Assembly (NCBI GenBank): GCA_016844925.1
Contig: JAERTI010000020.1
Coordinates: 97-64,096 of the forward strand
Direction of reading: 5' to 3'
Length of the DNA: 64,000 bases
Source of the DNA: Candidatus Uhrbacteria bacterium
Lineage (GTDB): Bacteria > Patescibacteriota > Patescibacteriia > UBA9934 > GWF2-40-263
Below are positions 2,524 through 58,762 of the stretch, piece after piece. Both the position numbers and the translations under genes were made by a program. How positions within the stretch are numbered: the first letter of the stretch is position 1; each line of letters starts with the position of its first letter. The notes beneath the pieces are model-generated. The model ran no database searches and was not told the DNA's origin. It saw only the letters and a program-made list of their open reading frames with translations.

Positions 2524-2883
2524 ATGCGTGCAAAACTCACCTACATTTCCATCATCGCGATCACGGCATTTATTCCGTGGCTGATTACACTTGCGGCACT
2601 TGGCCCGGCGAGTTCTCTACCTAGGATCGCATTTTTGGCCGTACACTATCTTCTTATTATCTTGCTCTTTGGGGTGGCGTTTGCGAATTACTTCAAGGGA
2701 CACCGAAAGGAAGATCCGTTTACCGTCATGGGGGTGGCGATGTTGAGCTTGTTTGTTTACGAGATTGTCTATTTCAAATTTCTCTACGAGGGAGAGCTCT
2801 GGTTCCTGACCTATTGGGACTGGATTGTCCCTGCATTCCTTATTGCTTCAACGATTTATTTCGTCGGAAAGGCCTTCAAGTGA
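2524..2883 (+). CDS. Small integral membrane protein, paralog A of 14042..14398
   Basis: 119 aa with about 4 predicted TM helices. Its C-terminal region EIVYFKFLYEGELWFLTYWDWIVPAFLIASTIYFVGKAF aligns with ELVVFRYLYSGERWFLNWADWILPVFLALTTVYAAGVF of the 14042 ORF. Confidence 0.6.
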   Translation: MRAKLTYISIIAITAFIPWLITLAALGPASSLPRIAFLAVHYLLIILLFGVAFANYFKGHRKEDPFTVMGVAMLSLFVYEIVYFKFLYEGELWFLTYWDWIVPAFLIASTIYFVGKAFK

Positions 2884-2948
2884 AGGCCTTTTCTAATAGA
2901 AGTAAGTCTGTTACGCTCCTTCGGCACAACCAACTGGGAAGGTGCATT

Positions 2949-3809
2949 ATGGGGAAAAAGTTCCTGGGAGGCGCGATCCTCTTCCTGTTCGTGCTGGGGA
3001 TGCTCTTCATCGCGATTCCTCAGCTGCTCTCGCGAAGAGCGCTGAACTGGCTCCGTCGCGCAGACGATGACGTCAGGAGTTTCACAGAGCGTCAGTGGCA
3101 GGCCACGTGGGCCCGTCGCTACTGGCGGCTCTTCTGCCACATCATGGGCATGAGCATGCCCCCCAAGTTCCTGGGGGAGCGTCACACCATGGGTGGGCCG
3201 TACATCTATGTGCTCAACCACCGCTGTGTCCTGGATCACTTTCTGGGACAGCACGTCCTGGCGTGCTCGGGGGTGAAGGACAGCCTCTGGGTGATCAAGC
3301 AGCAGATGGCCAATGAGCCTGTTCTGGGCAAGTCCATGGGGGGCGCTGGCTACGCGCTGGTCAAGCGAGGGGGAGAAGATCCCGAAGGTGATCGAGAGCG
3401 GATTCGTCAGATGGCGCGTCGGGCCAAGCGGATCGGCGCGTCCGTGGTCATCTACGCCGAGGGCACGCGCTACGACGCGCGTGAGTGGGAGAGTTTGGGG
3501 CGTCACAGCGACTACGCTCCGCATTTGGCTCCGCCCCGCATCACGGGCTTTGCCGAGCTGTGCGACGAGCTCCCGGACTGGCCGGTGAAGGTTGTCTGCA
3601 TGGATTGGCGCGGCATGATCGGCGGCAAGACCATCTGGGATGGCGAAGCCTACGCCGGCCTGCATGGTCGTGTGCTCATCTGGGAAGAGGAGAACCCGGG
3701 CAAGGACGGAGCGCGCGAGTTCCTCTACAGCATGTGGGACCGCATGTACAACGAGATGAGTGGTCAGGCCGACACGCGCCTGAAGATCGCTCGCGCACGC
3801 GAGGCCTGA
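2949..3809 (+). CDS. Lysophospholipid (1-acyl-sn-glycerol-3-phosphate) acyltransferase-like membrane protein; GC-rich
   Basis: N-terminal TM helix followed by the HX4D acyltransferase motif (NHRCVLD). The likely start is the ATG at 2949 (MGKKFLGG). GC is clearly higher than in the ribosomal region. Confidence 0.5.
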   Translation: MGKKFLGGAILFLFVLGMLFIAIPQLLSRRALNWLRRADDDVRSFTERQWQATWARRYWRLFCHIMGMSMPPKFLGERHTMGGPYIYVLNHRCVLDHFLGQHVLACSGVKDSLWVIKQQMANEPVLGKSMGGAGYALVKRGGEDPEGDRERIRQMARRAKRIGASVVIYAEGTRYDAREWESLGRHSDYAPHLAPPRITGFAELCDELPDWPVKVVCMDWRGMIGGKTIWDGEAYAGLHGRVLIWEEENPGKDGAREFLYSMWDRMYNEMSGQADTRLKIARAREA

Positions 3810-5704: not shown

Positions 5705-5780
5705 AGCTGAAGTTAAAAAAGCTGCCCACGGGCAGCTTTTTTGTTTGCAAGAAAAAATCCCTGCCAGAAGGGCAGGGGGT

Positions 5781-6509
5781 CTACTCGCTGAACCAGCGCT
5801 CGATGCGTTCGAGCGAAGGTTGGACGCGGTGGAAGCTCTCGCTGGCGATCAGACTGTGATCACCTGCGACACGAACGACCTTCACGCGCTCGTCGGGGTA
5901 GGTGGCGTGGGCGACGAAGAAGTCCTTCTCCGGCACGATGGCCATCACCTCGCAGGGCAGCGGAGGCATCCACAGGCGCAGCGGAGGCATGGAGATCTGC
6001 CTCACGGCGCCACAGGGCTCCGGGTGCAGTGCGCGCTTGATCTGCTCACGCAGCGTGGCACGGCGATCGGGGTTGGTGCCACCCAGGAGCATGGCATCGA
6101 TCTGTTCGTCGGTGTCCAGCTCCAGGTCCTTGCCCAGCAGCACGCGCCACAGAGGGGCGAAGGCGATCATCAGGCCATGGATGAGCACGGCGATGCGGAT
6201 GCCACGCCGTTCCATGCCACCGAAGAGGGCGACCTTCTTGAAGAGCCCCGGTTGCTTGGCCGCAACGCCGCGAATGACCTGCGCCCCCATGCTGAACCCG
6301 ATGGCATAGCAGCCGTTGGGAAGCAGGGAGAGGTCGATGTGGGCGTTGTTGACGTAGCCCTTCAGGCTCGTGCCCTTGTAGTGAAGGATCACCACATTCC
6401 AGTCGGAGAAGAAGGCGATCACGTGGCGGAACCACCAGCGGACGTACTTCTTGTTCTTGTTTCCCCAGGCGCCGGGGAACAGCACTACGGTGCGCTTGGC
6501 GTCTCCCAT
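5781..6509 (-). CDS. Alpha/beta hydrolase, paralog of 13039..13959; GC-rich
   Basis: GxSxG elbow YAIGFSMG matches YAIGFSYGG in the 13039 ORF. RBS TTAAGGAGG lies before the ATG at 6509. Confidence 0.55.
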   Translation of the reverse strand: MGDAKRTVVLFPGAWGNKNKKYVRWWFRHVIAFFSDWNVVILHYKGTSLKGYVNNAHIDLSLLPNGCYAIGFSMGAQVIRGVAAKQPGLFKKVALFGGMERRGIRIAVLIHGLMIAFAPLWRVLLGKDLELDTDEQIDAMLLGGTNPDRRATLREQIKRALHPEPCGAVRQISMPPLRLWMPPLPCEVMAIVPEKDFFVAHATYPDERVKVVRVAGDHSLIASESFHRVQPSLERIERWFSE

Positions 6510-6541
6510 CAGGGCCTCCTTAAGGTGAGGGGTGACTGGGG

Positions 6542-6570
6542 AGATTAGGAGAGCCGTGGGGTTTTGTCAA
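6542..6570 (-). promoter_or_regulatory. Sigma70-like promoter for the hydrolase at 5781..6509 (TTGACA, 17 nt, TAATCT)
   Basis: Plus-strand tgtcaa at 6565-6570 and agatta at 6542-6547. Shares the 14-mer ATTGACAAAACCCC with 277-290. Confidence 0.45.
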
Positions 6571-6598
6571 TAAAAAGGACCCAACGTGTTGTCGGGTC
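6571..6598 (-). terminator. Intrinsic terminator after island gene 1
   Basis: GC-rich hairpin (GACCCGACAACACGTTGGGTCC on the minus strand) followed by TTTTTA. Confidence 0.4.
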
Positions 6599-6609
6599 AG
6601 TGTTCACGG

Positions 6610-8019
6610 CTACTGCTCGTGAATGATTCGACTGATGCGCGCCATGACCTTGTGGGCCAACGGGAAGCGGTGTTCATCTGGAATCTTGACGTGGTATCGA
6701 CCGCCCTGAGCACGGACGAGTCTTTTGCTCACCATGTCCTGGAGTGTCGCTGCGAAGACTCGTCGTGGAGAGGAGACGTCAGGAAGGAACTGGCGACACA
6801 TGCGCCACAGGCGGTTTTCGTTGAGGTGAGGACTCGCAGCGAAGGTTATGAGCCTGTTTCCTTCACGAAGAAACCCGCAGAGCAGGATGGCCCGCGCGAA
6901 GGGGATGTTCAGGTCAGGGAACAGGTCCTCGAGTTCCAGCTTCTCCATCAGTTGCGGGAAGTCGGTGGCCCCGGTGGCCTGTTCGCGTTTCCTGTAGTTT
7001 GGGTGGTGACGCTTCAGACCGGTGAACTTCGTTCGTTCGGTTTTTGGTTCCGGGAGTGAGAGACGTTGTCTCTCAAGAGTGTGTCGCCGCTGCTCTTCAT
7101 GGAGCATCTTCCAGGCATCGTAATCGTCTTTTGTTCCGCCCAGGGCGAAGAAGTCGACCAGGGACAGGTCGTTTTTGAACGGCTCCCACGCGTTACACAC
7201 CGCAACAAGCTGGTCGAATGTGTCCATTCTGTAGACGATGGATGCGTCCGAGCAGATGGCCTTGAGGTGACGCGCGTTGAGGTATCCGTTGACGATGTAT
7301 CGAAGCAGGTTATCAACCACCTGGATGTCGGTAGCGTCTGCGAGCTGAGCGATGCGGCCGCAGCTTACCCGTCTGCGGTTCGCCTCTTTGATCATCATCC
7401 ACAACTTTGGGATGCCGACTTTCACACCGTGAGGTGAGGTGTATGCCGCGTATGGTGTGGGGACGTTCCAGCTTTGAAAAAGCTTCGTGACCAGCTGCAG
7501 CTGTGCACTGTTTCCCAGAGGGGTGCCAATGCTTGGCTGCTCATGCCCCGGTCTCCAACCGTAGAGTTCGGCCATGAACCTGAACATGTGTCCGCAGCGT
7601 TTCCATATAGGCATCTTCATCAGGTGCCTGATTGCTGGAACGGCTTCGCCCCAGTTCAGCATGGCTGTTGCCGCCTGGACGAATTCCAGGGTTTCGACCC
7701 ATGAGAGCTGACCGAACCCCCAGTGCTCCATGATGGCGAGTGTGTTGAGAGCGTGGTCAGCTCGTCCTCCACACGCGTCGACCAGTGCCCCGAGGAATTG
7801 TTCGGTATTGGGCAGGCACACAGCGCCCACGCCGGTGGAGAGAGTGATGATCCTTTCCAGTGCCTGATGAGCCTCCTTTCTTAGGCTCGGCTTCATGTTG
7901 GATTGTTCCACGAAACTTCTGGTCACGGCGACGACAGTCTCCGCTGGCAGTGAGGTTTCGTAGAAGTACGGACTCAGGTCAAGGCGCGGTGCCTCGACCG
8001 GTGATTCGGTGGTCGACAT
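6610..8019 (-). CDS. Island paralog 1 of an unrecognised four-member family (C-terminal winged-helix-like module, KRHH motif)
   Basis: Likely start is the ATG at 8019 (MSTTESP); the ORF track extends to 8085 through the leader hairpin. Central motif ALGGTKDDYDAWKML, basic motif GLKRHHPNY, C-terminus LQDMVSKRLVRAQGGRYHVKI. Shares its C-terminal architecture with 8141, 9760 and 11400. Confidence 0.6.
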   Translation of the reverse strand: MSTTESPVEAPRLDLSPYFYETSLPAETVVAVTRSFVEQSNMKPSLRKEAHQALERIITLSTGVGAVCLPNTEQFLGALVDACGGRADHALNTLAIMEHWGFGQLSWVETLEFVQAATAMLNWGEAVPAIRHLMKMPIWKRCGHMFRFMAELYGWRPGHEQPSIGTPLGNSAQLQLVTKLFQSWNVPTPYAAYTSPHGVKVGIPKLWMMIKEANRRRVSCGRIAQLADATDIQVVDNLLRYIVNGYLNARHLKAICSDASIVYRMDTFDQLVAVCNAWEPFKNDLSLVDFFALGGTKDDYDAWKMLHEEQRRHTLERQRLSLPEPKTERTKFTGLKRHHPNYRKREQATGATDFPQLMEKLELEDLFPDLNIPFARAILLCGFLREGNRLITFAASPHLNENRLWRMCRQFLPDVSSPRRVFAATLQDMVSKRLVRAQGGRYHVKIPDEHRFPLAHKVMARISRIIHEQ

Positions 8020-8020
8020 A

Positions 8021-8101
8021 GTGTCGATCCTTTCTCTTCGCCGCACGCCCCGGAAGGGGGGCGAAGGTATCGACACTAGCGGCATGAAGGATTCATGTCA
8101 A
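8021..8101 (-). promoter_or_regulatory. Type-B 5' region of paralog 1: TTGACA, 17 nt, TAGTGT promoter overlapping a conserved leader hairpin that contains the SD
   Basis: Plus-strand tgtcaa at 8096-8101 and acacta at 8073-8078. Inverted repeat GTGTCGAT(8021-8028)...ATCGACAC(8069-8076) with inner stem CTTCGCC/GGCGAAG. The 3' arm carries AAAGGA and ends 2 nt before the ATG. It is nearly identical to 11286..11356. Confidence 0.5.
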
Positions 8102-8102
8102 T

Positions 8103-8134
8103 AAAAAAACCCCGACGTTGTGGCCGGGAAGGGG
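8103..8134 (-). terminator. Intrinsic terminator after paralog 2
   Basis: GC-rich hairpin CCCCTTCCCGGCCACAACGTCGGGG followed by T7 on the minus strand. Confidence 0.45.
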
Positions 8135-8140
8135 CGTCTC

Positions 8141-9571
8141 TCACGAGGCGTGCGTTGCCGTGATGAGCGTTTCTATGTGGGTAATCTGCTGCCGGGCTTG
8201 GGTGTAGCGACCAGAGGGCTTCTTGAGCCTCAGGCGCTTCCCCTCACGTGTGAGCAGGTGCTCTGTCTCGAGCTGGCCGAGGAACTTCTTGAGCTCCCGT
8301 CGGCTTCCAAAGACAGTTCTGCACTGTTTCCAGAGCTTCTTCTCGTCCCGTCCTTCACAGTCGGTGAGCGACCGTGGGAGACGATCTCCGTGTCGGAGGA
8401 ATCCCTCAACGATGATGTGTCGGAGCCGGTCTTCACCCAGCGCTGCAAACGTCGACGTGACGTTCAGCTTGCGCCGCAGGGCGTCGAAGTCGATCTGCTT
8501 GGGCTTGGGAGGCCTGTAGCTGTGGTGGTGACGCTTGTTGCCCGTTGCCTGAGGGGTGGGTTCCTCCGACAAACGCGTGCATGGCTGGGGTGATGGCTTT
8601 GAGGCCATTGAACGCTCCAGCTCTTCTTGCTCAAGCAGCTGCAGGAATTCCCAGTCATCCGCGGTTCCGCCAGCCTCGTGGAAAGCGGACCAGTCTTTGG
8701 GGCGACCAGCATTGTGCCACTCACTGAGAAAGTCTGGGAACGCTTCGGGGCCAATTTTCTCGAGCAAGTCCTTTTCGCCAAGGGTCCGTCTCAGGACCTT
8801 GTCTTCACGTAGGTGACTAGGGGTAGATTCAGCGATCGCCATGATCTCCAGAAACGTCGTGTCCTGCAACAGGCGGACGATCTGGTCCAGCGAGTAGTCA
8901 CGTGTCAGCAGGTGTAGTTGCTTCCATACGAGAAAGAGAGGGGCATTCACTCCCGAGTTCTTGTAGGTCAGCTCCAAGTCCTCAAGGGCTTGGTCGCCAA
9001 GCTCCTGTGCGTAGTCTTCGATCTGCTGCCTCGCTCCCATGGCGATCTTGAGCGTGGCGATGAACAGCGAAACGCTTGCGATCGGTTTTGGGTGCTGAGG
9101 GTACGTCGCGAGACGAGCACGCTCCTGATCTGAGGAGAAGTTGGCCAACTGGTGCGCCACCTGAACGAGTTCAAAGGCACGAAGTGAGGCCTCGGGCATC
9201 TTTTCAAGGACGCGCTCATTGGTTGTGCTGAGGTAATCCGGAGAGAGCTTGACCCATAGGCCGAGATCGCAGAATTCTCTGTAGAGCCGTACGTACATCT
9301 TTGGGTGGCTGTAGGTGAATCCGTACAGCGCAACACCTCCAATGACTTCGAGCATCCTCGTAAGCCTGAGCTCGGTCTTGTCGAGGTCTTCGAGCACGGC
9401 GTTGAGTGTTGTCAGGTACCCGTAGCGGCCAATGGGGCCACGTCGCTTGACCATCCGCTCGAGCATGGCTCTGGCCGCCTTGGCGATTTCACCTTGCAGC
9501 TTGAGTGTGTCCATGTAGGCCCGGATGGTTCCGGGGACGTGTTCGAAGTCTTTATAGTGCTCCAGTTCCAT
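8141..9571 (-). CDS. Island paralog 2 (same unrecognised family)
   Basis: Motifs SEWHNAGRPKDWSAFHEAGGTADDW and GNKRHHHSYRPPKPK, C-terminus LGQLETEHLLTREGKRLRLKK. The start is uncertain: ATG at 9571 (MELEHYK) or TTG at 9601. No strong SD at either. Confidence 0.55.
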   Translation of the reverse strand: MELEHYKDFEHVPGTIRAYMDTLKLQGEIAKAARAMLERMVKRRGPIGRYGYLTTLNAVLEDLDKTELRLTRMLEVIGGVALYGFTYSHPKMYVRLYREFCDLGLWVKLSPDYLSTTNERVLEKMPEASLRAFELVQVAHQLANFSSDQERARLATYPQHPKPIASVSLFIATLKIAMGARQQIEDYAQELGDQALEDLELTYKNSGVNAPLFLVWKQLHLLTRDYSLDQIVRLLQDTTFLEIMAIAESTPSHLREDKVLRRTLGEKDLLEKIGPEAFPDFLSEWHNAGRPKDWSAFHEAGGTADDWEFLQLLEQEELERSMASKPSPQPCTRLSEEPTPQATGNKRHHHSYRPPKPKQIDFDALRRKLNVTSTFAALGEDRLRHIIVEGFLRHGDRLPRSLTDCEGRDEKKLWKQCRTVFGSRRELKKFLGQLETEHLLTREGKRLRLKKPSGRYTQARQQITHIETLITATHAS

Positions 9572-9695
9572 CAGGTAGAAACCTTGGGAGCCTTTACGCA
9601 AACCACGCTCTGCGGGGTTGGCTACGTGCAGGTGCTTAACGTACTTGAGTTTCCGACCCAGAGGGGCCTCCTTTACTCCTGGGTAGGAGAGAATG

Positions 9696-9724
9696 AGAAT
9701 AGGGCCTTAGGGGGTTATCGTCAA
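9696..9724 (-). promoter_or_regulatory. Type-A promoter for paralog 2 (TTGACG, 17 nt, TATTCT)
   Basis: Plus-strand cgtcaa at 9719-9724 and agaata at 9696-9701. Homologous to the module at 12976..13040. Confidence 0.5.
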
Positions 9725-9730
9725 GGGAAT

Positions 9731-9761
9731 GAAAAAGAAAAAAGAGACTCCGGAGAGTCTC
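9731..9761 (-). terminator. Intrinsic terminator after paralog 3; it overlaps the stop codon
   Basis: Perfect hairpin GAGACTC-TCCG-GAGTCTC at 9744-9761, followed on the minus strand by TTTTTTCTTTTTC. Confidence 0.55.
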
Positions 9762-11277
9762 AAGTTGCGTACTTCGCCATCAGGCCACGGAGCTGCGTGA
9801 GGAGCTGGTGAGCCTTGGGAAAGCGTGTATTTGGGAGTGCTAGGGAGTAGTTGCCGCGCTTGAAGGTGACTAGATGTGCCTCCAGGAGTGGCCGGAGTTC
9901 TCGAGTGAACTGCTTACGACTACTTGCTTCAACGTGTCCCTTCACCTGTCTCCAGAGCTTCTTGCCATCTCTGGAAGGAAGCTTTGTCCAGTCGGTTGTG
10001 AGGCGGTCACCGTCACGGAGCAAGCCGTACACGAGTACGACTCGCGTCAGTGCTTCGTCCAGATCAGGAAAGTGCGCATGGACGTTGAGCTCGGAGCAGA
10101 GGGCCCCGAAGTCTACGTCTGTGGACTTTTCTGCTGGGATGAAGTTCGCGTGATGCCGTTTTCGACCGGTGGGGGTCTGGTTTGGTCGGACAGGGGTCGC
10201 TAGTCCTCCTGTGGGCTTTGTGGTTGAGGAGGGTTTTTGCACAGACCGTTGTTGGTCAAGGTGCCTCTCCCAGTCCTGCGCCCGCCCGCCCGCTTCCCAG
10301 AATTCCATGAGGTCACATGGCTTTTCGGCCTTTTCCCATTCTGCGAGCAGTGAACGCATGATCTGGTCGTCCCAGTAAGCGTCTACCAGAAAGCCGGGCT
10401 CGCGGAAGCAAAAGATCAAGGCATCGGGGGTGAGGATCTCGCGTTCAATGAGGGAGAGGGTCATGAAGCAGAACTCAGCTGAGTGCTCTTTCAGCATCTT
10501 GTGAGTAAGACGCTGGGAGAACCCTCTTTGTTTCGCAAGAGCGAAGCGTTCCCAGAGGCGAGTTGTTGTGACCACTTCTTGGTCAAACTTGATCTTCAGG
10601 TCAGGTCCCAACGTTACGTCGAGAGAGGTGATGAGCCTAATGGCCGACAAGAGTGCTTCAAAATCTTGTGGCTCAGGTAGGTTGTGCGGCTCTCTTGTCC
10701 ATCCTTCCTCTTCCGTGTAGTTGCACAGAAGGGCAGAGCTAGCAAGAAGTGCGACGGATTTCGGGTTGAAGTCCGCATCTCCTATATCGAATGCATCAGG
10801 GTGCGCTAAGGCAATTTGATACATACGTTTTGCAAAAGCCGCGAGCTCATGAGAGCTTTTGAATCTCAGGTCCGCCATCGACAGCTTGTGAACGACGCTG
10901 GCGACGATGTTGGGAGTTTCTCCTAAGCAGTCTGTGAGCCGGTCGATCAAGCTGTTGACCGTTCCAAGGAAGCCGTGCTGGTTTTCCGGGCCGTCACCAA
11001 GAGTCATTCTGGTGAAGGCATCGACGACCACCTTCTTCTTGTCTTCAGGGAGCTCAGCATCGCGGAGCCAGTTACGCCACGTTGGAGCGACGAACCGTGG
11101 GTCGAAACCGCAGGATTTCCAGCGTTTGTCTTTCGGCTCCATGTAAATGGTTACGCCTCTAGACAGTCGTTCCTTGCCAAGGATTTCAGCAAGTTCTTCG
11201 GAGGAAGAGATCTTGAGAGAACGGATGTGTGAGAAGCGTTTTTTTGAGTAACGCCGCTTTTTCTGCTTGGTGGGCAT
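9760..11277 (-). CDS. Island paralog 3 (same unrecognised family)
   Basis: Likely start is the ATG at 11277 (MPTKQKK); the ORF track extends to 11331 through the leader element. Motifs MEFWEAGGRAQDWERHL and TGRKRHHANF, C-terminus LRPLLEAHLVTFKRGNYSLAL. Confidence 0.6.
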   Translation of the reverse strand: MPTKQKKRRYSKKRFSHIRSLKISSSEELAEILGKERLSRGVTIYMEPKDKRWKSCGFDPRFVAPTWRNWLRDAELPEDKKKVVVDAFTRMTLGDGPENQHGFLGTVNSLIDRLTDCLGETPNIVASVVHKLSMADLRFKSSHELAAFAKRMYQIALAHPDAFDIGDADFNPKSVALLASSALLCNYTEEEGWTREPHNLPEPQDFEALLSAIRLITSLDVTLGPDLKIKFDQEVVTTTRLWERFALAKQRGFSQRLTHKMLKEHSAEFCFMTLSLIEREILTPDALIFCFREPGFLVDAYWDDQIMRSLLAEWEKAEKPCDLMEFWEAGGRAQDWERHLDQQRSVQKPSSTTKPTGGLATPVRPNQTPTGRKRHHANFIPAEKSTDVDFGALCSELNVHAHFPDLDEALTRVVLVYGLLRDGDRLTTDWTKLPSRDGKKLWRQVKGHVEASSRKQFTRELRPLLEAHLVTFKRGNYSLALPNTRFPKAHQLLTQLRGLMAKYAT

Positions 11278-11285
11278 GTAAGGAG

Positions 11286-11356
11286 CCTTTCTCTTCGCCA
11301 GCTTCCCGGAGGGAGGCGAAGGTATCGACACTATCGAGCTCCTTGATTCATGTCAA
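11286..11356 (-). promoter_or_regulatory. Type-B 5' region of paralog 3: TTGACA, 17 nt, TAGTGT promoter plus a conserved leader element
   Basis: Plus-strand tgtcaa at 11351-11356 and acacta at 11328-11333. Leader arms GTGTCGATACCTTCGCC (5') and GGCGAAGAGAAAGG (3') are identical to those of paralog 1. Confidence 0.5.
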
Positions 11357-11382
11357 CAAAAAACTCCGACGCATGGTCGGAG
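11357..11382 (-). terminator. Intrinsic terminator after paralog 4
   Basis: Hairpin CTCCGAC-CATGC-GTCGGAG followed by TTTTTTG on the minus strand. Confidence 0.5.
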
Positions 11383-11399
11383 GAGGGAGTCTGGAGGAC

Positions 11400-12947
11400 T
11401 CAGGTATTTGCACAGAGCTTCGTAAGCGCTGTACGCACGTTGAGTGCTCCGTGCGTTGAGTGAGAGTTCGTAGCGATTTGGTACTTACCACCACTCTGCC
11501 GGACGAGTCGGATGGACTCGAGCTGGCGCAACGCGCTGTTGATGTCACGGTCCTGGACCCTACCCAGCTGCCTGACTCGGCTGCGGAGCTTACTGGCCTT
11601 GATCTGCGGCCAGCGGGCCGGCTGCATGAGACGGTCGCCAGAGCGCATGAGGGTCAGCAGGATGGCTGAGACAAGATCTGCATCGTGGTCCGGGAGGTGC
11701 TTGAGCACAATCTCGCGGACCAAGTTGCGGAGCCTGTCCCAATCGGTCTGCGGCTTCTCCTTCGGTGGCTCGAAGTTTCGATGCCGGCGCTTGTTTCCGG
11801 TGGATCGCTGGGGCTTGGGAGGCTTGGCTGCCTGCACCCGAGGGATCCGCGCCCGTTCTCGTCGTCGAGCCTCAAGGAGCCGTCTCTTCTCGGCTTGCGA
11901 GCTCAGGTGCGCTTGCCAGCTCACGCTGGTGCCTCCCTGGCGCAGAAACGCACGGAAGTCATCAGGTCGTCCGGCTTCACTCCAGTGCTCCAGCAGGGCA
12001 ACGACCTCGGTAGGGACGTCCATCTTGATCTCACGCGCGTGGCGCGCAAGGGTTCGGACCTGCTCCTGGTCGAGTGCACCGGTGCTGTACTGGGCGATGA
12101 CATAGAGAACGACCTTCATGGTGCTGTGTTGCACCAGGGAACGGACATCTGTCACGGCGAACCCGTGGTCCGTCAGGATGGTCAGCAGGGACCAGATGCG
12201 TCCAAGGGAAACGGTGTCTGCACCGGCTTCATCGGACAGCGTGTCGTCGGGGCTGAGCACGCGCTCGTCCTGGATGAGAAGATGCACGGCCAAGACGATC
12301 AGTTCAGGGTCGTGCGCCGACAGTACCACCGGAAGGTCTTCTACACCACATGCCCGCAGGTGCTTGATGATGTGGACTAACGCTGTGGTGATGACTTCTG
12401 TGGCATTGATGTCGATCCTGGATTCAGGAATCTCGTTGCGAAGCTGTAGTGGCTTGATGGCCTTGCGGAGCCCTGTGTAGAGACGCTCGTAGTCACCATA
12501 GTGTTCGTACAAGTAGCCGGTACGTTCCATGGCAGCCAGCGAGGTCATCCCCAGTGTGGGGTGCCCGCGGAAGAGTTTGGTAAAGCGCTGGATGAGCCGG
12601 TCGCACCGCCCAAGGAGGGTGGTGCCAGGATGACCCTTCCTGGCAAGGCGCAGCAAGGCGTTGACGCCAAACGTCCTGTACCCAGGGTTGAATTGAGTCA
12701 AATCCGTGAGGAAGTTCCTGATGATCCCGCCCACACAGTTCGGGTGGTTGTAGAGCTTGCGGATCGTCTCACTCGGAGGGAGGACAACAAGCCTTCGCAT
12801 CTCCTTACGAAATTCTTCGTCGGGATCGTCGATCTCACGAGCATCCTTCTCCCAGAAGGTGGGGGTCTCGCTCATGGTCACGAGCTCAGGAATGTCCTGG
12901 ACATCGATGCTCAAGTGCACCAACTTCAGACGGCCAACCTTGGCCAT
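11400..12947 (-). CDS. Island paralog 4 (same unrecognised family)
   Basis: Likely start is the ATG at 12947 (MAKVGRLKL) with SD AAGGAG. Motifs LEHWSEAGRPDDFRAFLRQGGTSVSW and TGNKRRHRNFEPPKEK, C-terminus LRQLESIRLVRQSGGKYQIA. Confidence 0.6.
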   Translation of the reverse strand: MAKVGRLKLVHLSIDVQDIPELVTMSETPTFWEKDAREIDDPDEEFRKEMRRLVVLPPSETIRKLYNHPNCVGGIIRNFLTDLTQFNPGYRTFGVNALLRLARKGHPGTTLLGRCDRLIQRFTKLFRGHPTLGMTSLAAMERTGYLYEHYGDYERLYTGLRKAIKPLQLRNEIPESRIDINATEVITTALVHIIKHLRACGVEDLPVVLSAHDPELIVLAVHLLIQDERVLSPDDTLSDEAGADTVSLGRIWSLLTILTDHGFAVTDVRSLVQHSTMKVVLYVIAQYSTGALDQEQVRTLARHAREIKMDVPTEVVALLEHWSEAGRPDDFRAFLRQGGTSVSWQAHLSSQAEKRRLLEARRRERARIPRVQAAKPPKPQRSTGNKRRHRNFEPPKEKPQTDWDRLRNLVREIVLKHLPDHDADLVSAILLTLMRSGDRLMQPARWPQIKASKLRSRVRQLGRVQDRDINSALRQLESIRLVRQSGGKYQIATNSHSTHGALNVRTALTKLCANT

Positions 12948-12975
12948 GATTGCTCCTTGGAAAGGGCAGATGATG

Positions 12976-13004
12976 AGGTTAGCGACGATATGGAGGCGCG
13001 TCAA
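12976..13004 (-). promoter_or_regulatory. Type-A promoter for paralog 4 (TTGACG, 17 nt, TAACCT)
   Basis: Plus-strand cgtcaa at 12999-13004 and aggtta at 12976-12981. The surrounding roughly 45 bp are homologous to 9696..9761. Confidence 0.45.
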
Positions 13005-13010
13005 GGGAGT

Positions 13011-13040
13011 AGGAAAAGAAAAAGAGAGACGGAGTCTCTC
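13011..13040 (-). terminator. Intrinsic terminator after the hydrolase at 13039..13959
   Basis: Hairpin GAGAGAC-TCC-GTCTCTC at 13024-13040 followed by TTTTTCTTTTCC on the minus strand. Confidence 0.5.
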
Positions 13041-13959
13041 AGGGGGTGGAGGATTTGTCTTTGAGGCTGCGGCGGATGCGCAGGCCCAGGACGATCCAGA
13101 CCAGGGGGTTCATGGTGGCCTTGTGGCCGATCTGGGGGAGGGTATGGCTCCACCAGGTGGGGAGCGTGGGCTGCCAGCGCCACAGAGACAGAACGATAAG
13201 AGCCGGCCAAATGACATAGCGCTGCCATCTGGAAGGAACGACCGAATCTGCTGGGCGCGGAGGGCGCGTGTCGCTCTTGTGGGCGACAAGGTCTACGAAC
13301 GAGGCGTTGTGATGAACGAAGACACCGTGGGCTTCGAGGTGCTCGATGGCGCGGTGTGTCTGTGGGAGGTTCTCCGAGTCTGGTTCCATCTCACGTGCCC
13401 CACTGGCCTTGATCACTCGCGCGAGCGCGGAGCCGCGCAGGGGAGTGTTCACGGTGTAGAGCGTGCGGATGTCTCGATCCGGATAGGCCTTGACCAGGTC
13501 CACCAGCTGCCAGATCAAATCGAACCCGCCGTAGCTGAAGCCGATGGCGTACAGCGGACGTTGTCCGGTGTGCTTGCGGAACCACTCACGGTTGAGCGAG
13601 ACGATTTCCGAAGACGGGACAACGTTGCCCGCAAGCGGGGTCTGGATGAACAGGATCCGGTAGCCGAATACTTTGTTCAGGAATACGCCCATGGGCCAGA
13701 CGGTGTAGGGGGTCGTATTGAGACCCACCGCGATGGCGACGTCTGCACGAGCACTCTCGTGATTGAGGATGTAAGGGAAGTGTCCCAGTCGCCACTTTGC
13801 ATACGTACAGATCACCGCCTCCAGCAGGAGGACGGGCAGGTGGGTGATGACGAGTACCGGACCACGGATGGGTCCGAGGATTTCGAATCCTTCGCGCACA
13901 CGGCGCTTCCACTCGCTGAGGAAGGACGTGCCTTCCACATCGATCGAATCTTCTTTCAT
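13039..13959 (-). CDS. Alpha/beta hydrolase with a C-terminal hydrophobic/TM segment; paralog of 5781..6509
   Basis: YAIGFSYGG nucleophile elbow. Likely start is the ATG at 13959 (MKEDSIDV) with SD GGAGGGG. The C-terminal segment is W-rich and hydrophobic. Confidence 0.55.
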   Translation of the reverse strand: MKEDSIDVEGTSFLSEWKRRVREGFEILGPIRGPVLVITHLPVLLLEAVICTYAKWRLGHFPYILNHESARADVAIAVGLNTTPYTVWPMGVFLNKVFGYRILFIQTPLAGNVVPSSEIVSLNREWFRKHTGQRPLYAIGFSYGGFDLIWQLVDLVKAYPDRDIRTLYTVNTPLRGSALARVIKASGAREMEPDSENLPQTHRAIEHLEAHGVFVHHNASFVDLVAHKSDTRPPRPADSVVPSRWQRYVIWPALIVLSLWRWQPTLPTWWSHTLPQIGHKATMNPLVWIVLGLRIRRSLKDKSSTP

Positions 13960-14041
13960 GGCCCCTCCGCGGGTGGATGCTGAGCGTACGATGTCGATGG
14001 TGTCTTGGTCAAGGAGATGGGCTCGTGTACGATAGAAGGGT

Positions 14042-47162: not shown

Positions 47163-47241
47163 AGAGTAATAAGCACTCTAAGGGTTGATCCATAGAGTGC
47201 TTTTTGTTACGCTCGCAGCCTCATCAACCGGAGGTGGCCCC

Positions 47242-47781
47242 ATGGCCTTGCGTGAGCTTTTTTCAGAACAGCAGATTCGAGACGCGGTGCTTCGCATCGC
47301 ACAGGAGATCTCTCAAGACTTCCAGGACCAGGAGATCACGCTCGTGTGCGTGCTCAAGGGATCCTTCCTCTTCACGGCTGACCTGGCTCGAGCGATCGAG
47401 CGGGTTGCGGCGTCCGGCAAGGGGGTCAAGACCTGTCGGATTGAGTTCATGCGCGCATCCTCCTACGGGGACAGCGAAGAGCCCGGCGATGTGGAGATCA
47501 AGCTGGACCTGGATCGCTCGCTGCGCGGGCTCAACGTCATCCTGGTCGAGGACATCGCTGACACCTGCCAGACGCTGGCCAAGCTGCAGGCGCACCTGGC
47601 CCTGAAGGGGCCGCATGATCTGCGCACGGCTGTGCTGCTCACCAAGCCGCACAAGCACGAGCTCGAGGTCCAGATGGACTACGTTGGCATCGTGGGCGAC
47701 GGCGTCGGTTTCGTGGTCGGCTACGGCATGGACAACGCTGGCACCATGCGCGGGCTCCCGTACATCGGTGTGATCGAGTAG
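47242..47781 (+). CDS. hpt: Hypoxanthine-guanine phosphoribosyltransferase; GC-rich
   Basis: PRPP-binding loop VILVEDIADTCQTL. SD GGAGG before the ATG at 47242. About 60% or higher GC. Confidence 0.75.
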   Translation: MALRELFSEQQIRDAVLRIAQEISQDFQDQEITLVCVLKGSFLFTADLARAIERVAASGKGVKTCRIEFMRASSYGDSEEPGDVEIKLDLDRSLRGLNVILVEDIADTCQTLAKLQAHLALKGPHDLRTAVLLTKPHKHELEVQMDYVGIVGDGVGFVVGYGMDNAGTMRGLPYIGVIE

Positions 47782-51740: not shown

Positions 51741-52439
51741 ATGTCGTTTGAAGTGAAACTGGAACAGTTCGATGGGCCGCTACACTTGCTCTTGGATTTG
51801 ATTGAGTCACAGGAGCTGCCTATTACAGATGTCTCTCTTGCTCAGGTGACGGAGACGTATCTGGATCACGTGAATGCAAATGAGGTGCCCCCTGCGGAGT
51901 TAGCTGATTTTCTGGTCGTCGCGACAAAACTGCTTCTCATCAAGTCACGTGCCATTCTGCCTGTACCAGAAGAAGAGGTAAAAGAAGATCCGTCCACGCT
52001 CGCTTTGCAACTTAGGCTCTATAAAGAATTCGTCGAAGCATCGAAGCAGCTTGAGGCGATGTGGGATGGACCACAGTGTTCGTTTGGTCGTGCGCAGGCA
52101 GATATCATCAAGGCTCAGGGGTTCACATTAGCGCCAGGTGTTGATGTGGACTCGCTCCAGGGTTCATTCACGCGGCTGCTCAAGCGCCTAGAGCCGTTTT
52201 TCAAAATTCAACAGGCGGCCATGGAGCGGGTGGTGTCGGTGAAGGAGCGGCTGCGAGAGATTCATGATGCCATCTTGTCTCGGTCGCAGATGCACTTCTC
52301 GCATGTGGTGAAGGGGGCGAAGAATAAAGTGGATGTCGTCGTCTCGTTCCTGGCGCTGCTCGAACTTGTGAAGCAGCGGGTGGTGACGACGGTGCAGTCA
52401 GACAGTTTTCAAGATATAGAGATTAAGCGGATCGATTAG
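51741..52439 (+). CDS. scpA: Segregation and condensation protein A
   Basis: LEQFDGPLHLLLDLIESQELPITDVSLAQVT. Confidence 0.8.
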   Translation: MSFEVKLEQFDGPLHLLLDLIESQELPITDVSLAQVTETYLDHVNANEVPPAELADFLVVATKLLLIKSRAILPVPEEEVKEDPSTLALQLRLYKEFVEASKQLEAMWDGPQCSFGRAQADIIKAQGFTLAPGVDVDSLQGSFTRLLKRLEPFFKIQQAAMERVVSVKERLREIHDAILSRSQMHFSHVVKGAKNKVDVVVSFLALLELVKQRVVTTVQSDSFQDIEIKRID

Positions 52440-56210: not shown

Positions 56211-57071
56211 TCAGCGGACCAGGAGCATGAGCGCGCGGCTCAGCTTCTCGGCCACCTCCTTGGCCCGATCACGATGCGTCTCGTGGTCGGGCGTCTCCTT
56301 GTTGTCGTTGGTGATCAGGGCCACCGGGATGACCTTCACGTCCGGGTAGAGCGCGGCGACCGAGCACTCGGGCTTCACGCTCATGCCCACCACGGCGCCG
56401 CCGGAGTTGAGCATCAGGCGCTTGTCGCCGATGGACTCGAAGTGGGGGCCGCGGAACATGACGTAGGGCCCCATGTTGAGCTCGTCGCGCTCGCGCAGTG
56501 CGCCGTCCGGCTGGAAATGCCGGGTCGCATCCTGGTCGATGCATGCGGCGGGGTTGACGAATTCACCGGGGAACAGGGGCATGGTGTCCGAGCCCCAGCT
56601 CACGAAGTCGGTGATGTAGAAGAGGTCGCCCATGCTCAGGTGGCCCCACAGGGCACCAGCGGCGCAGGTGAGGACGAACTTCTTCACCCCGAGCTTGATG
56701 AGCACCTCGATCTGCAAGCGCACCATGAGGCGGACGTCCGGGTTGAACGTGTCCTCGTTCATGTGGATGCGACCGCGCAGGACGATCACGCGCTTGGGCT
56801 TGCCGTCGACCTCGACGGTGCCCAGCTCCAGGCGACGCTCGTGCCCCTCCAGTTCGTCGAGCTTGCTGAAGGCACCGATCTCGGTCAGGCGCACGGTGTG
56901 CGTGGCCTCGAAGGGGAAGGCATCACCCCAGCCCGTGCCCAGCACGATGGCCGCGTCGATCTCCTCGTCATGGGCCAGGTCGAAGCGGTGACGCAGGTCA
57001 CGCTCACATTTTTGCAGCATGCCTTCACTCGTCTTGTCGCCAGCGAGGCGGTAGTAATCTGCCCGTTTCAT
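56211..57071 (-). CDS. Purine nucleoside phosphorylase / MTA phosphorylase family (PNP family 2); very GC-rich
   Basis: GTGWGDAF, RGRIHMNE and MSVKPECSVAALYPDVKVIPVALITND correspond to the PNP/MTAP motifs. About 63-65% GC. Likely start is the ATG at 57071. Confidence 0.65.
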   Translation of the reverse strand: MKRADYYRLAGDKTSEGMLQKCERDLRHRFDLAHDEEIDAAIVLGTGWGDAFPFEATHTVRLTEIGAFSKLDELEGHERRLELGTVEVDGKPKRVIVLRGRIHMNEDTFNPDVRLMVRLQIEVLIKLGVKKFVLTCAAGALWGHLSMGDLFYITDFVSWGSDTMPLFPGEFVNPAACIDQDATRHFQPDGALRERDELNMGPYVMFRGPHFESIGDKRLMLNSGGAVVGMSVKPECSVAALYPDVKVIPVALITNDNKETPDHETHRDRAKEVAEKLSRALMLLVR

Positions 57072-57190
57072 CAGAATCTCCAAAGCTGTACGTCAGCGAC
57101 GAGACCTTAGCAGGCCTGAAAAAGGTGTCAAACTGTCAGTTTATTAACCATTAGTCTTGACCAAATTGAATGAGGAGCGTATAACTGTGG

Positions 57191-57267
57191 CGCGGGGTAG
57201 AGCAGTCAGGCAGCTCGTCGGGCTCATAACCCGAAGGTCGTCGGTTCAAATCCGACCCCCGCAACCA
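57191..57267 (+). tRNA. Initiator tRNA-fMet (CAU)
   Basis: Cloverleaf with anticodon loop CTCATAA, three G-C pairs in the anticodon stem (GGG/CCC) and a C1:A72 mismatch. CCA is encoded. Confidence 0.8.
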
Positions 57268-58565: not shown

Positions 58566-58642
58566 GGCTGGGTAGCTCAGTTGGTTAGAGCGTGGGACTC
58601 ATAAGCCCGAGGTCGAGGGTTCAAATCCCTCCCCAGCTACCA
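58566..58642 (+). tRNA. tRNA with CAU anticodon (elongator Met or Ile2/lysidine)
   Basis: Cloverleaf with GTAGCTCAGTTGGTTAGAGC D-arm, anticodon loop CTCATAA, GGTTCAAATCC T-arm and a G1-U72 wobble. CCA is encoded. Confidence 0.7.
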
Positions 58643-58675: not shown

Positions 58676-58762
58676 GCCGGGATGGCGGAATTGGTAGACG
58701 CGTAGGTCTCAAACACCTATATGGGCAACCATGTGCGGGTTCGATCCCCGCTCCCGGCACCA
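58676..58762 (+). tRNA. tRNA-Leu (CAA), type II with a long variable arm
   Basis: Acceptor GCCGGGA/TCCCGGC, anticodon loop CTCAAAC, long variable arm. CCA is encoded. Confidence 0.8.

Follow-up and report, generated by a model that had tools for sequence, protein, structure and literature searches.

What are the four tandem genes that lie on the minus strand of a Candidatus Uhrbacteria contig (JAERTI010000020.1), are they a chromosomal family or the cargo of an acquired element, and what might their products do? The genes, here called D, C, B and A in the order in which they are read, occupy part of the 64,000-nucleotide stretch of that contig that was analysed (the window; Table 1), and each encodes a protein of roughly 500 residues. 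A preliminary description, made from the sequence alone, had proposed that they form a diversifying family of DNA-binding proteins carried on foreign DNA. We find instead a rare chromosomal family whose members are predicted to join an all-helical N-terminal domain (N-domain) whose fold has no solved relative to a tryptophan (Trp)-rich block, followed by a basic arm and then a winged helix at the C terminus, and whose genes are gained or lost between strains as whole transcription units. A putative role in nucleic-acid binding is favoured below and weighed against its rivals.

Paralogy of the four genes

All four minus-strand open reading frames (ORFs) of the preliminary description were recovered at the same coordinates, and their homology stands, with BLASTP alignments significant in 6 of 6 pairs (E 5e-12 to 4e-28). 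These pairwise alignments are confined to the C-terminal 185-300 residues. In a multiple alignment of A-D the three blocks reported as shared (the Trp/GGT block, the G-x-K-R-H-H motif and the C-terminal module) follow one another in register, as they do in 30 further homologues (34-sequence alignment). The N-terminal ~300 residues had been called barely alignable, which is correct for pairwise BLAST, where 260 residues go undetected, but not as a statement on homology: an N-domain profile built from relatives outside the window only matches C, D, B and A at E 4e-42, 2e-31, 7e-19 and 4e-14, respectively. Judged by sequence, A-D are true paralogs, N-domain included. A six-frame scan of the window with the family hidden Markov model (HMM) found no fifth copy.

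Predicted domain architecture

The AlphaFold2 model of protein C, computed from the 34-sequence alignment, reaches a predicted local distance difference test (pLDDT) score of 87.7 and a predicted template modelling (pTM) score of 0.68. Its all-helical N-domain of about 300 residues is modelled with confidence (pLDDT 88.6); no structural relative of this domain was found, no relative has been solved, and no internal repeats were detected within it. The Trp/GGT block that follows folds into helices 304-316, 323-328 and 333-347 (pLDDT ~97), with the G-G-T turn between the second and the third, and conforms to the pattern W...G-x-P...F...G-G-T...W...H, in which W, F and GG hardly vary among 22 sequences. 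The block leads into a charged, disordered linker of 35-55 residues across the family that bears the G-x-K-R-(H/G) arm. The arm differs by clade (G-x-K-R-H-H-x-N-F/Y versus P-K-G-x-K-R-G-Q) and keeps a constant position, 10-15 residues ahead of the C-terminal domain.

The C-terminal module had been described as winged-helix-like, and the model agrees. The order of elements in C (helix 408-418, short strands, helix 438-445, helix 454-466, hairpin 470-479 and a final helix 487-504) matches the topology helix 1-strand-helix 2-helix 3-beta hairpin, and the domain is predicted to be a canonical winged helix. It has an isoelectric point of 9.2-11.4 and a net charge of +4 to +13 in 34 of 34 members; the N-domains are for the most part acidic. 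Basic residues are conserved in three motifs of the domain: helix 1 is followed by G-D-R, in which the R is the basic position, helix 2 contains K-L-W/R, and S-R-K/R opens helix 3. The uniformly high isoelectric point and the conserved S-R-K/R lend indirect support to putative nucleic-acid binding through helix 3 and the wing.

As first stated, A-D lack signal peptides and transmembrane helices, none appearing on a Kyte-Doolittle scan, and they have no N-terminal hydrophobic segment. Two such segments occur in one sister clade (P0026, P0031, P0032, first genes of L002, L006, L008; L numbers denote related loci). A further locus, L019, contains, two ORFs downstream of a family member, a 266-residue gene (2152-2952) with a match to the N-domain only (E 2e-8, profile positions 55-238) and no winged helix; the gene is a stand-alone relative of the N-domain.

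Distribution of the family

A HMMER search of 1.84 billion cluster representatives returned 42 proteins at E<=1e-3, 23 of them at E<=1e-30. The relatives are mostly 460-534 residues long, and most are matched end to end (profile ~20 to 468). The family is real but rare and lineage-restricted. It was the exhaustive profile search that recovered it; word-index searches failed, returning only the query itself or one 86-residue fragment whether started from protein C, the 34-sequence alignment or the C-terminal alignment.

The preliminary description could not place the family in a named Pfam or defence-system family, and the libraries do not place it either. Nothing passed any threshold for A-D in Pfam, NCBIfam, PHROGs or PADLOC, and the defence-protein HMMs of PADLOC-DB 2.0 gave no match at E<=1 for A-D or the two neighbours that flank them. 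Sequence profiles of the PDB gave nothing below E 0.04. Comparison of 34 aligned members with Pfam revealed no recurrent family, the sub-threshold matches being scattered over GntR, ANAPC2, HVO_A0261_N, Cdc6_C and HTH_27; BFVD had no match at E<=1e-3, and the entries it listed are tape-measure noise. No relatives were found in IMG/VR, among GenBank/INPHARED phages or among PLSDB plasmids, no match was obtained when JGI metagenome contigs were scanned with C-terminal patterns, and full-text searches found no literature on the family. The family, its N-domain and the cassette-like behaviour of the array are undescribed in the libraries and literature searched, the C-terminal fold being already known.

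A contig scan of 185,579 species genomes yielded a single locus, in the Parcubacteria group metagenome-assembled genome (MAG) JABMNZ010000026.1. The EF-Tu of the window shares a 90%-identity cluster with that of Candidatus Uhrbacteria bacterium CG_4_9_14_3_um_filter_50_9, and a neighbouring gene of L008 falls into a cluster with a protein from the Parcubacteria group. By every named clue the family belongs to Parcubacteria (Uhrbacteria).

Strain variation and evolutionary rate

Loci L012-L016 are ~90% identical to the window in DNA throughout the region, apart from two clean gaps that correspond exactly to genes C and A, each with its promoter and terminator (cassettes C and A in Table 1). At the site of cassette C in L012, L015 and L016 the flanks are 89-91% identical and 38 nucleotides (nt) stand in place of the cassette. 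At cassette A, TTTTTATTGACA flanks each end. The junctions fall at the T-run with which the preceding terminator closes and at the -35 box. Because L004 carries a D-type and a C-type gene and L012 a D-type and a B-type gene, the simplest explanation is that single units were lost or gained differentially. A neighbour-joining tree places members of one array in different deep clades, whose order along the array is partly kept.

The array genes also diverge faster than the genes around them. Relative to L004, housekeeping proteins are 80-87% identical and the 306- and 118-residue proteins upstream of the array 66% (L004_301) and 62%, against 37% for D and 30% for C; the closest relative of C, P0003, is 42% identical to it. 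Between the window and L012, amino acid identity is 72% for D (nonsynonymous divergence, dN, 0.19; synonymous divergence, dS, 0.72; dN/dS 0.26) and 87% for B (dN 0.069, dS 0.35, dN/dS 0.20), compared with 93-99.8% for the neighbours (dN/dS 0.00-0.16). The dS of D stands against 0.19-0.47 for most neighbours (up to 0.58-0.63 for a 189-residue gene), which hints at allele exchange. No segment exceeds a dN/dS of 0.32, which leaves pervasive positive selection unsupported. Selection on the family is purifying but relaxed, and the family evolves several times faster than the genes around it.

Transcription units and gene starts

Each gene had been credited with its own promoter and terminator, and both are found: a hairpin with a T-run lies 3' of each of A-D, and TTGAC[AG]-17-TAnnnT upstream of each. 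A G+C-rich hairpin and T-run in fact closes all six minus-strand genes from 14100 to 5781 (at 13040, 11382, 9761, 8129, 6598 and 5777), and each T-run directly precedes TTGAC[AG], a spacer of exactly 17 nt and TAnnnT. At its own threshold a generic promoter scan passed the site of B only, and the promoters are to be read as a consistent pattern, not as a statistical result. The same layout of terminator, TTGACA, TAnnnT, short leader and GAGAAAGG is present 5' of family genes in unrelated contigs. From these signals A-D are predicted to be separate transcription units.

Gene B probably starts at the in-frame CTG at 9661 (~506 residues) rather than at ATG 9571, a choice that follows from the -10 spacing, a Shine-Dalgarno sequence and an N-terminal motif in the extension. 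The -10 box of B lies 124 nt from the ATG and ~34 nt from the CTG, and the CTG would give B a -10-to-start distance like that of the other array genes. The Shine-Dalgarno sequence AAGGAGG is located 5 nt before the CTG. The upstream extension reads GRKLKYVKHLHV; its stretch GRKLKYVKHL corresponds to the motif found at the N terminus of D (GRLKLVHLSI) and to that of L006_2 (GKKKYIHGLYI), a B-type gene that starts with TTG at the place equivalent to the CTG of B.

The upstream modules of A and C are 80% identical across 59 nt, and the 11-mer AGTGTCGATAC, allowing 0-1 mismatch, is limited to these duplicated modules. Just 5' of the AGAAAGG Shine-Dalgarno sequence of both genes is a leader hairpin with the stem CUUCGCC / GGCGAAG, whose inner stem has C-G in one copy and U-A in the other. 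The identical stem precedes related genes in two distant Parcubacteria contigs (L002 ~8800-8825 and L008 ~9670-9690), and the hairpin energies are no better than those of shuffles (z -0.7 to -1.7). The leader of A is bracketed by a 16-nt inverted repeat (TAGTGTCGATCCTTTC / GAAGGTATCGACACTA, 8019-8034 and 8063-8078) that spans the -10 box and the start codon.

Genomic context and composition

Two gene neighbourhoods recur around the family. Context 1 (the window, L004, a JGI contig and L012-L016) runs from S12-S7-EF-G through an M50 peptidase to murA, a 118-residue membrane protein, a 306-residue G-x-S-x-G protein, one to four family genes, a 242-residue G-x-S-x-G protein and a Na/H exchanger. 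Context 2 (L002 and L006-L011) has NDK, a ~320-residue GNAT protein, one to four family genes, a small ORF, a 97-residue TrpR/HTH_23-like protein, AstE/AspA, GNAT, Dtd, NadE and NAPRTase. Elements of both are combined in L019, and in L017 two members have two small genes between them. There are four copies in the window and in L006, two in L002, L004, L008 and L012-L016, and one in L010 and the JGI contig. The locus is chromosomal, syntenic and old.

The 306-residue neighbour adjoins the array throughout context 1 and is 95% identical in L012-L015; the 242-residue neighbour is 95% identical in L012-L016 and has a 244-residue gene in its position in the JGI contig. The two flanking proteins have the G-F-S-x-G nucleophile elbow alone in common and no overall similarity. 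The TrpR/HTH_23-like protein (90-97 residues) is encoded just 3' of the context 2 arrays and in L019, and is missing from the window array.

The block had further been called more GC-rich than the ribosomal operons of the window and, partly for that reason, foreign. The compositional contrast is real: G+C content at third codon positions (GC3) is 0.62-0.73 in A-D, 0.86 in the 242-residue gene and 0.76 in the 306-residue gene, versus 0.40-0.55 in the genes for EF-G, EF-Tu and ribosomal proteins. It is, however, not unique to the block, since other non-housekeeping genes of the window have similarly high values, in the range 0.68-0.89 (0.76 in an acyltransferase gene at 2814-3809, 0.80 in an unassigned 198-residue ORF at 47185-47781, 0.89 in a PNP_UDP_1 phosphorylase gene at 56211-57083, and others similar). 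The ribosomal operons as a yardstick overstate the foreign character of the block; either composition varies along the genome as a mosaic or codon bias is strongly linked to expression.

Were the array the cargo of a recently arrived mobile element (Rep-like proteins, regulators or anti-host factors), the high GC3 of the six-gene minus-strand block would be its signature. This idea fails because the array keeps its chromosomal position in several related genomes, because no integrase, transposase, phage or plasmid gene stands beside it, and because no relatives occur in the phage and plasmid collections searched. It is further opposed by the comparable GC3 of other chromosomal genes, by the lack of AAA+ or Rep domains and by the paralogs of one array, which sit in deep, separate clades and do not look like a recent import. 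The acquired-element explanation is largely refuted already, and we hold it to be very improbable. Integron cassettes, which are promoterless ORFs followed by an attC site with an intI integrase nearby, were likewise considered and rejected: the units carry their own promoters, their 3' hairpins are terminator stems of 7-8 bp with T-runs, and no integrase was found among the scanned neighbouring genes or in precomputed Pfam tables of the related loci. A transposase reading was rejected as well.

Long plus-strand ORFs at 5745-6548, 12757-13983 and 11685-12380 (267, 408 and 231 residues) overlap minus-strand genes almost fully; in all likelihood high GC3 on the other strand produces them as shadows and they are not genes. 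Elsewhere the 64 kb contain two tRNA-Met(CAT) genes and one tRNA-Leu(CAA) gene (57191-57267, 58566-58642 and 58676-58762), and neither rRNA nor any further Rfam family turned up there.

Table 1. Features of the array and its surroundings; positions refer to the window unless another locus is named
Feature	Position	Strand	Remarks
Gene D	11400..12947	(-)	515 aa; opens the array; D-type clade; family HMM E 8e-125
Gene C	9760..11277	(-)	505 aa; protein used for the AlphaFold2 model
Gene B	8141..9571 (ATG); 8141..9661 (if CTG start)	(-)	476 aa as ORF from ATG
Gene A	6610..8019	(-)	469 aa; closes the array; family HMM E 1e-118
Upstream neighbour	13039..13959	(-)	306 aa; G-F-S-Y-G motif; alpha/beta-hydrolase-like (Abhydrolase_1 weak, E 0.016)
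Downstream neighbour	5781..6509	(-)	242 aa; G-F-S-M-G motif; alpha/beta-hydrolase-like (weak hydrolase matches)
Cassette C (promoter, gene, terminator)	9697..11354	(-)	blastn against L012, L015, L016
Cassette A (promoter, gene, terminator)	6572..8136	(-)	missing from the same strains as cassette C
N-domain of C, all-helical	10369..11145	(-)	residues 45-303; a short N-terminal part precedes
Trp/GGT block of C	10237..10368	(-)	residues 304-347; three short helices
Trp/GGT block, equivalents	D 11883-12014; B 8618-8749; A 7087-7218	(-)	
Basic arm G-x-K-R-H-H of C	10150..10167	(-)	within disordered linker 348-389, pLDDT 51-56
Basic arm, equivalents	D 11781-11798; B 8525-8542; A 7003-7020	(-)	
Predicted winged helix of C	9763..10110	(-)	residues 390-505
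Predicted winged helix, equivalents	D 11403-11741; B 8144-8488; A 6613-6960	(-)	
Terminator-like hairpin after D	11364..11382	(-)	intrinsic type, with T-run
Terminator-like hairpin after C	9744-9761	(-)	
Terminator-like hairpin after B	8110-8129	(-)	
Terminator-like hairpin after A	6578-6598	(-)	
Promoter-like site of D	12976..13004	(-)	TTGACG-17-TAACCT
Promoter-like site of C	11328-11356	(-)	
Promoter-like site of B	9696-9724	(-)	
Promoter-like site of A	8073-8101	(-)	
Promoter-like site of 242-aa gene	6542-6570	(-)	
Leader hairpins of A and C	8036-8067 and 11293-11322	(-)	
TrpR/HTH_23-like genes	L008 11643-11936; L010 4172-4465; L011 2213-2506; L019 2990-3262		

Comparison with known systems

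The MarR, ArsR, GntR and Fur families were tried and set aside, the best matches (GntR, E 0.029, in 3 of 34 members; HTH_27, E 0.13) being far below the cut-off. Regulators of the MarR/SlyA, ArsR/SmtB and Fur types are dimers of 100-150 residues built from a winged helix and a dimerisation helix, whereas in the array proteins the predicted winged helix is the tail of a ~500-residue protein whose remaining parts are an unrelated 300-residue domain, the Trp block and the arm. Replication initiators of the Orc1/Cdc6 or Rep kind were rejected in the absence of AAA or Rep Pfam matches, the N-domain being all helical and without a P-loop fold, and the suggestion that the proteins are replication-initiator-like found no positive evidence. 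In contrast to Orc1/Cdc6 and ORC2 the array proteins have no AAA+ domain or Walker motifs, and in contrast to RepA/RepE they lack a second winged helix and their genes are not in an origin-like or plasmid context.

Kleisins (ScpA/MukF/JetA) were excluded by the lack of any kleisin Pfam match and of any SMC-like gene within 8-10 kb at any locus examined. The family differs from them in having no SMC, JetC or MukB partner nearby, in its tandem arrays of one to four genes and in an N-domain without structural match to kleisin N-domains. A known anti-phage defence system was dismissed on the negative PADLOC-DB 2.0 search, and a reading as a defence system equally found no positive evidence.

Discussion

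The reading that we favour, and that we consider about evenly poised between right and wrong, is that the proteins bind nucleic acid through the arm and winged helix, owe their paralog-specific function to the N-domain and act as putative regulators or DNA-associated factors. The basic arm and winged helix would contact nucleic acid, most likely double-stranded DNA, with the recognition helix in the major groove and the arm in an adjacent groove or on the backbone. The fast-diverging ~300-residue N-domain would supply the difference between paralogs, be it a ligand, a partner protein or self-association, and in one clade the two N-terminal hydrophobic segments may tether it to the membrane. 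With a strong-looking promoter and a terminator of its own, each paralog could have its dosage set gene by gene, and the repeated terminator/-35 junctions would be where the array turns over, whole promoter-gene-terminator units being gained or lost there.

Several points weigh against this reading. A protein divergence of 13-28% between strains, compared with 0-7% for the neighbours, is unusual for ordinary transcription factors. No partner gene is constant across both contexts, and no recurrent operator-like motif emerged, AGTGTCGATAC being unenriched in the window (14 matches versus 12.9 expected). The taxonomic base consists of one named MAG and two 90%-identity clusters, and at such divergence the neighbour-joining tree is approximate.

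The same divergence, far above that of the neighbours at short and long range, would suit an array for conflict-driven recognition (phage defence, superinfection exclusion or host interaction), in which the N-domain recognises a foreign target that changes, and a common output such as the binding or silencing of invading DNA comes from the conserved arm and winged helix. Whole genes that are present or absent between ~90% identical strains, tandem paralogs with separate strong-looking promoters and the dS of D, with its suggestion of allele exchange, fit such a role. Selection does not, gene-wide dN/dS being purifying at 0.20-0.26 and no segment standing out; nor do the silence of PADLOC, the lack of a nuclease, NTPase or other effector domain, the absence of defence genes nearby in the loci examined, the ancient paralog types with their kept array positions, or a locus that is syntenic and not an island. 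We regard this explanation as unlikely. A comparably small chance attaches to a scaffold or adaptor, whose winged helix and linker motif would dock on a common protein in the manner of kleisins or cullins while the N-domain recruits varied cargo, nucleic acid not being the main ligand. A helical domain joined through a flexible linker to a winged helix at the C terminus is a kleisin-like layout, and one member per deep clade within an array fits a hetero-oligomer. However, neither context has an SMC-like or other conserved partner gene adjacent, a window gene at 51741-52439 itself reads, by eye only, as ScpA-like, and the uniformly high positive charge of the domain suits nucleic acid better.

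Abundant DNA-coating proteins akin to nucleoid-associated proteins or xenogeneic silencers, self-associating through their N-terminal part, offer another account of the same parts. In Rok of Bacillus the C-terminal winged helix is the DNA-binding domain, and the array proteins resemble Rok/H-NS-type silencers in having an N-terminal helical part, a flexible basic linker and a putative C-terminal DNA-binding-type domain. The near-consensus -35 boxes suggest high expression, and several paralogs per genome are usual for such proteins, as with H-NS/StpA and MvaT/MvaU. Yet at 470-530 residues the array proteins are 2.5-3 times larger than these silencers, they lack the G-R-P core of the AT-hook and any sequence or family match to them, and they evolve fast, unlike the known nucleoid proteins, which are conserved. 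There is, in our estimate, only a slim chance that this account is correct.

A bolder form of the conflict idea would make the arrays a new conflict module of candidate-phyla-radiation bacteria: separately expressed sensors, each with a rapidly diversifying N-domain of unseen fold for a different phage or host factor, that share an arm and winged-helix output on DNA and whose cassettes are swapped between strains. We think it rather improbable.

Candidate-phyla-radiation bacteria have tiny genomes, few recognisable regulators and a proteome of which much is unannotated, and unannotated families are common in them. Here up to four copies of one family are retained in a reduced genome, with cassette-like turnover between strains. 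If the proteins do bind DNA, the family may be a main lineage-specific class of regulators or chromosome-associated proteins in Parcubacteria; if its fast evolution reflects conflict, it would be a new defence or host-interaction module. Under either reading, a database entry and a structure would be worth having for the family.

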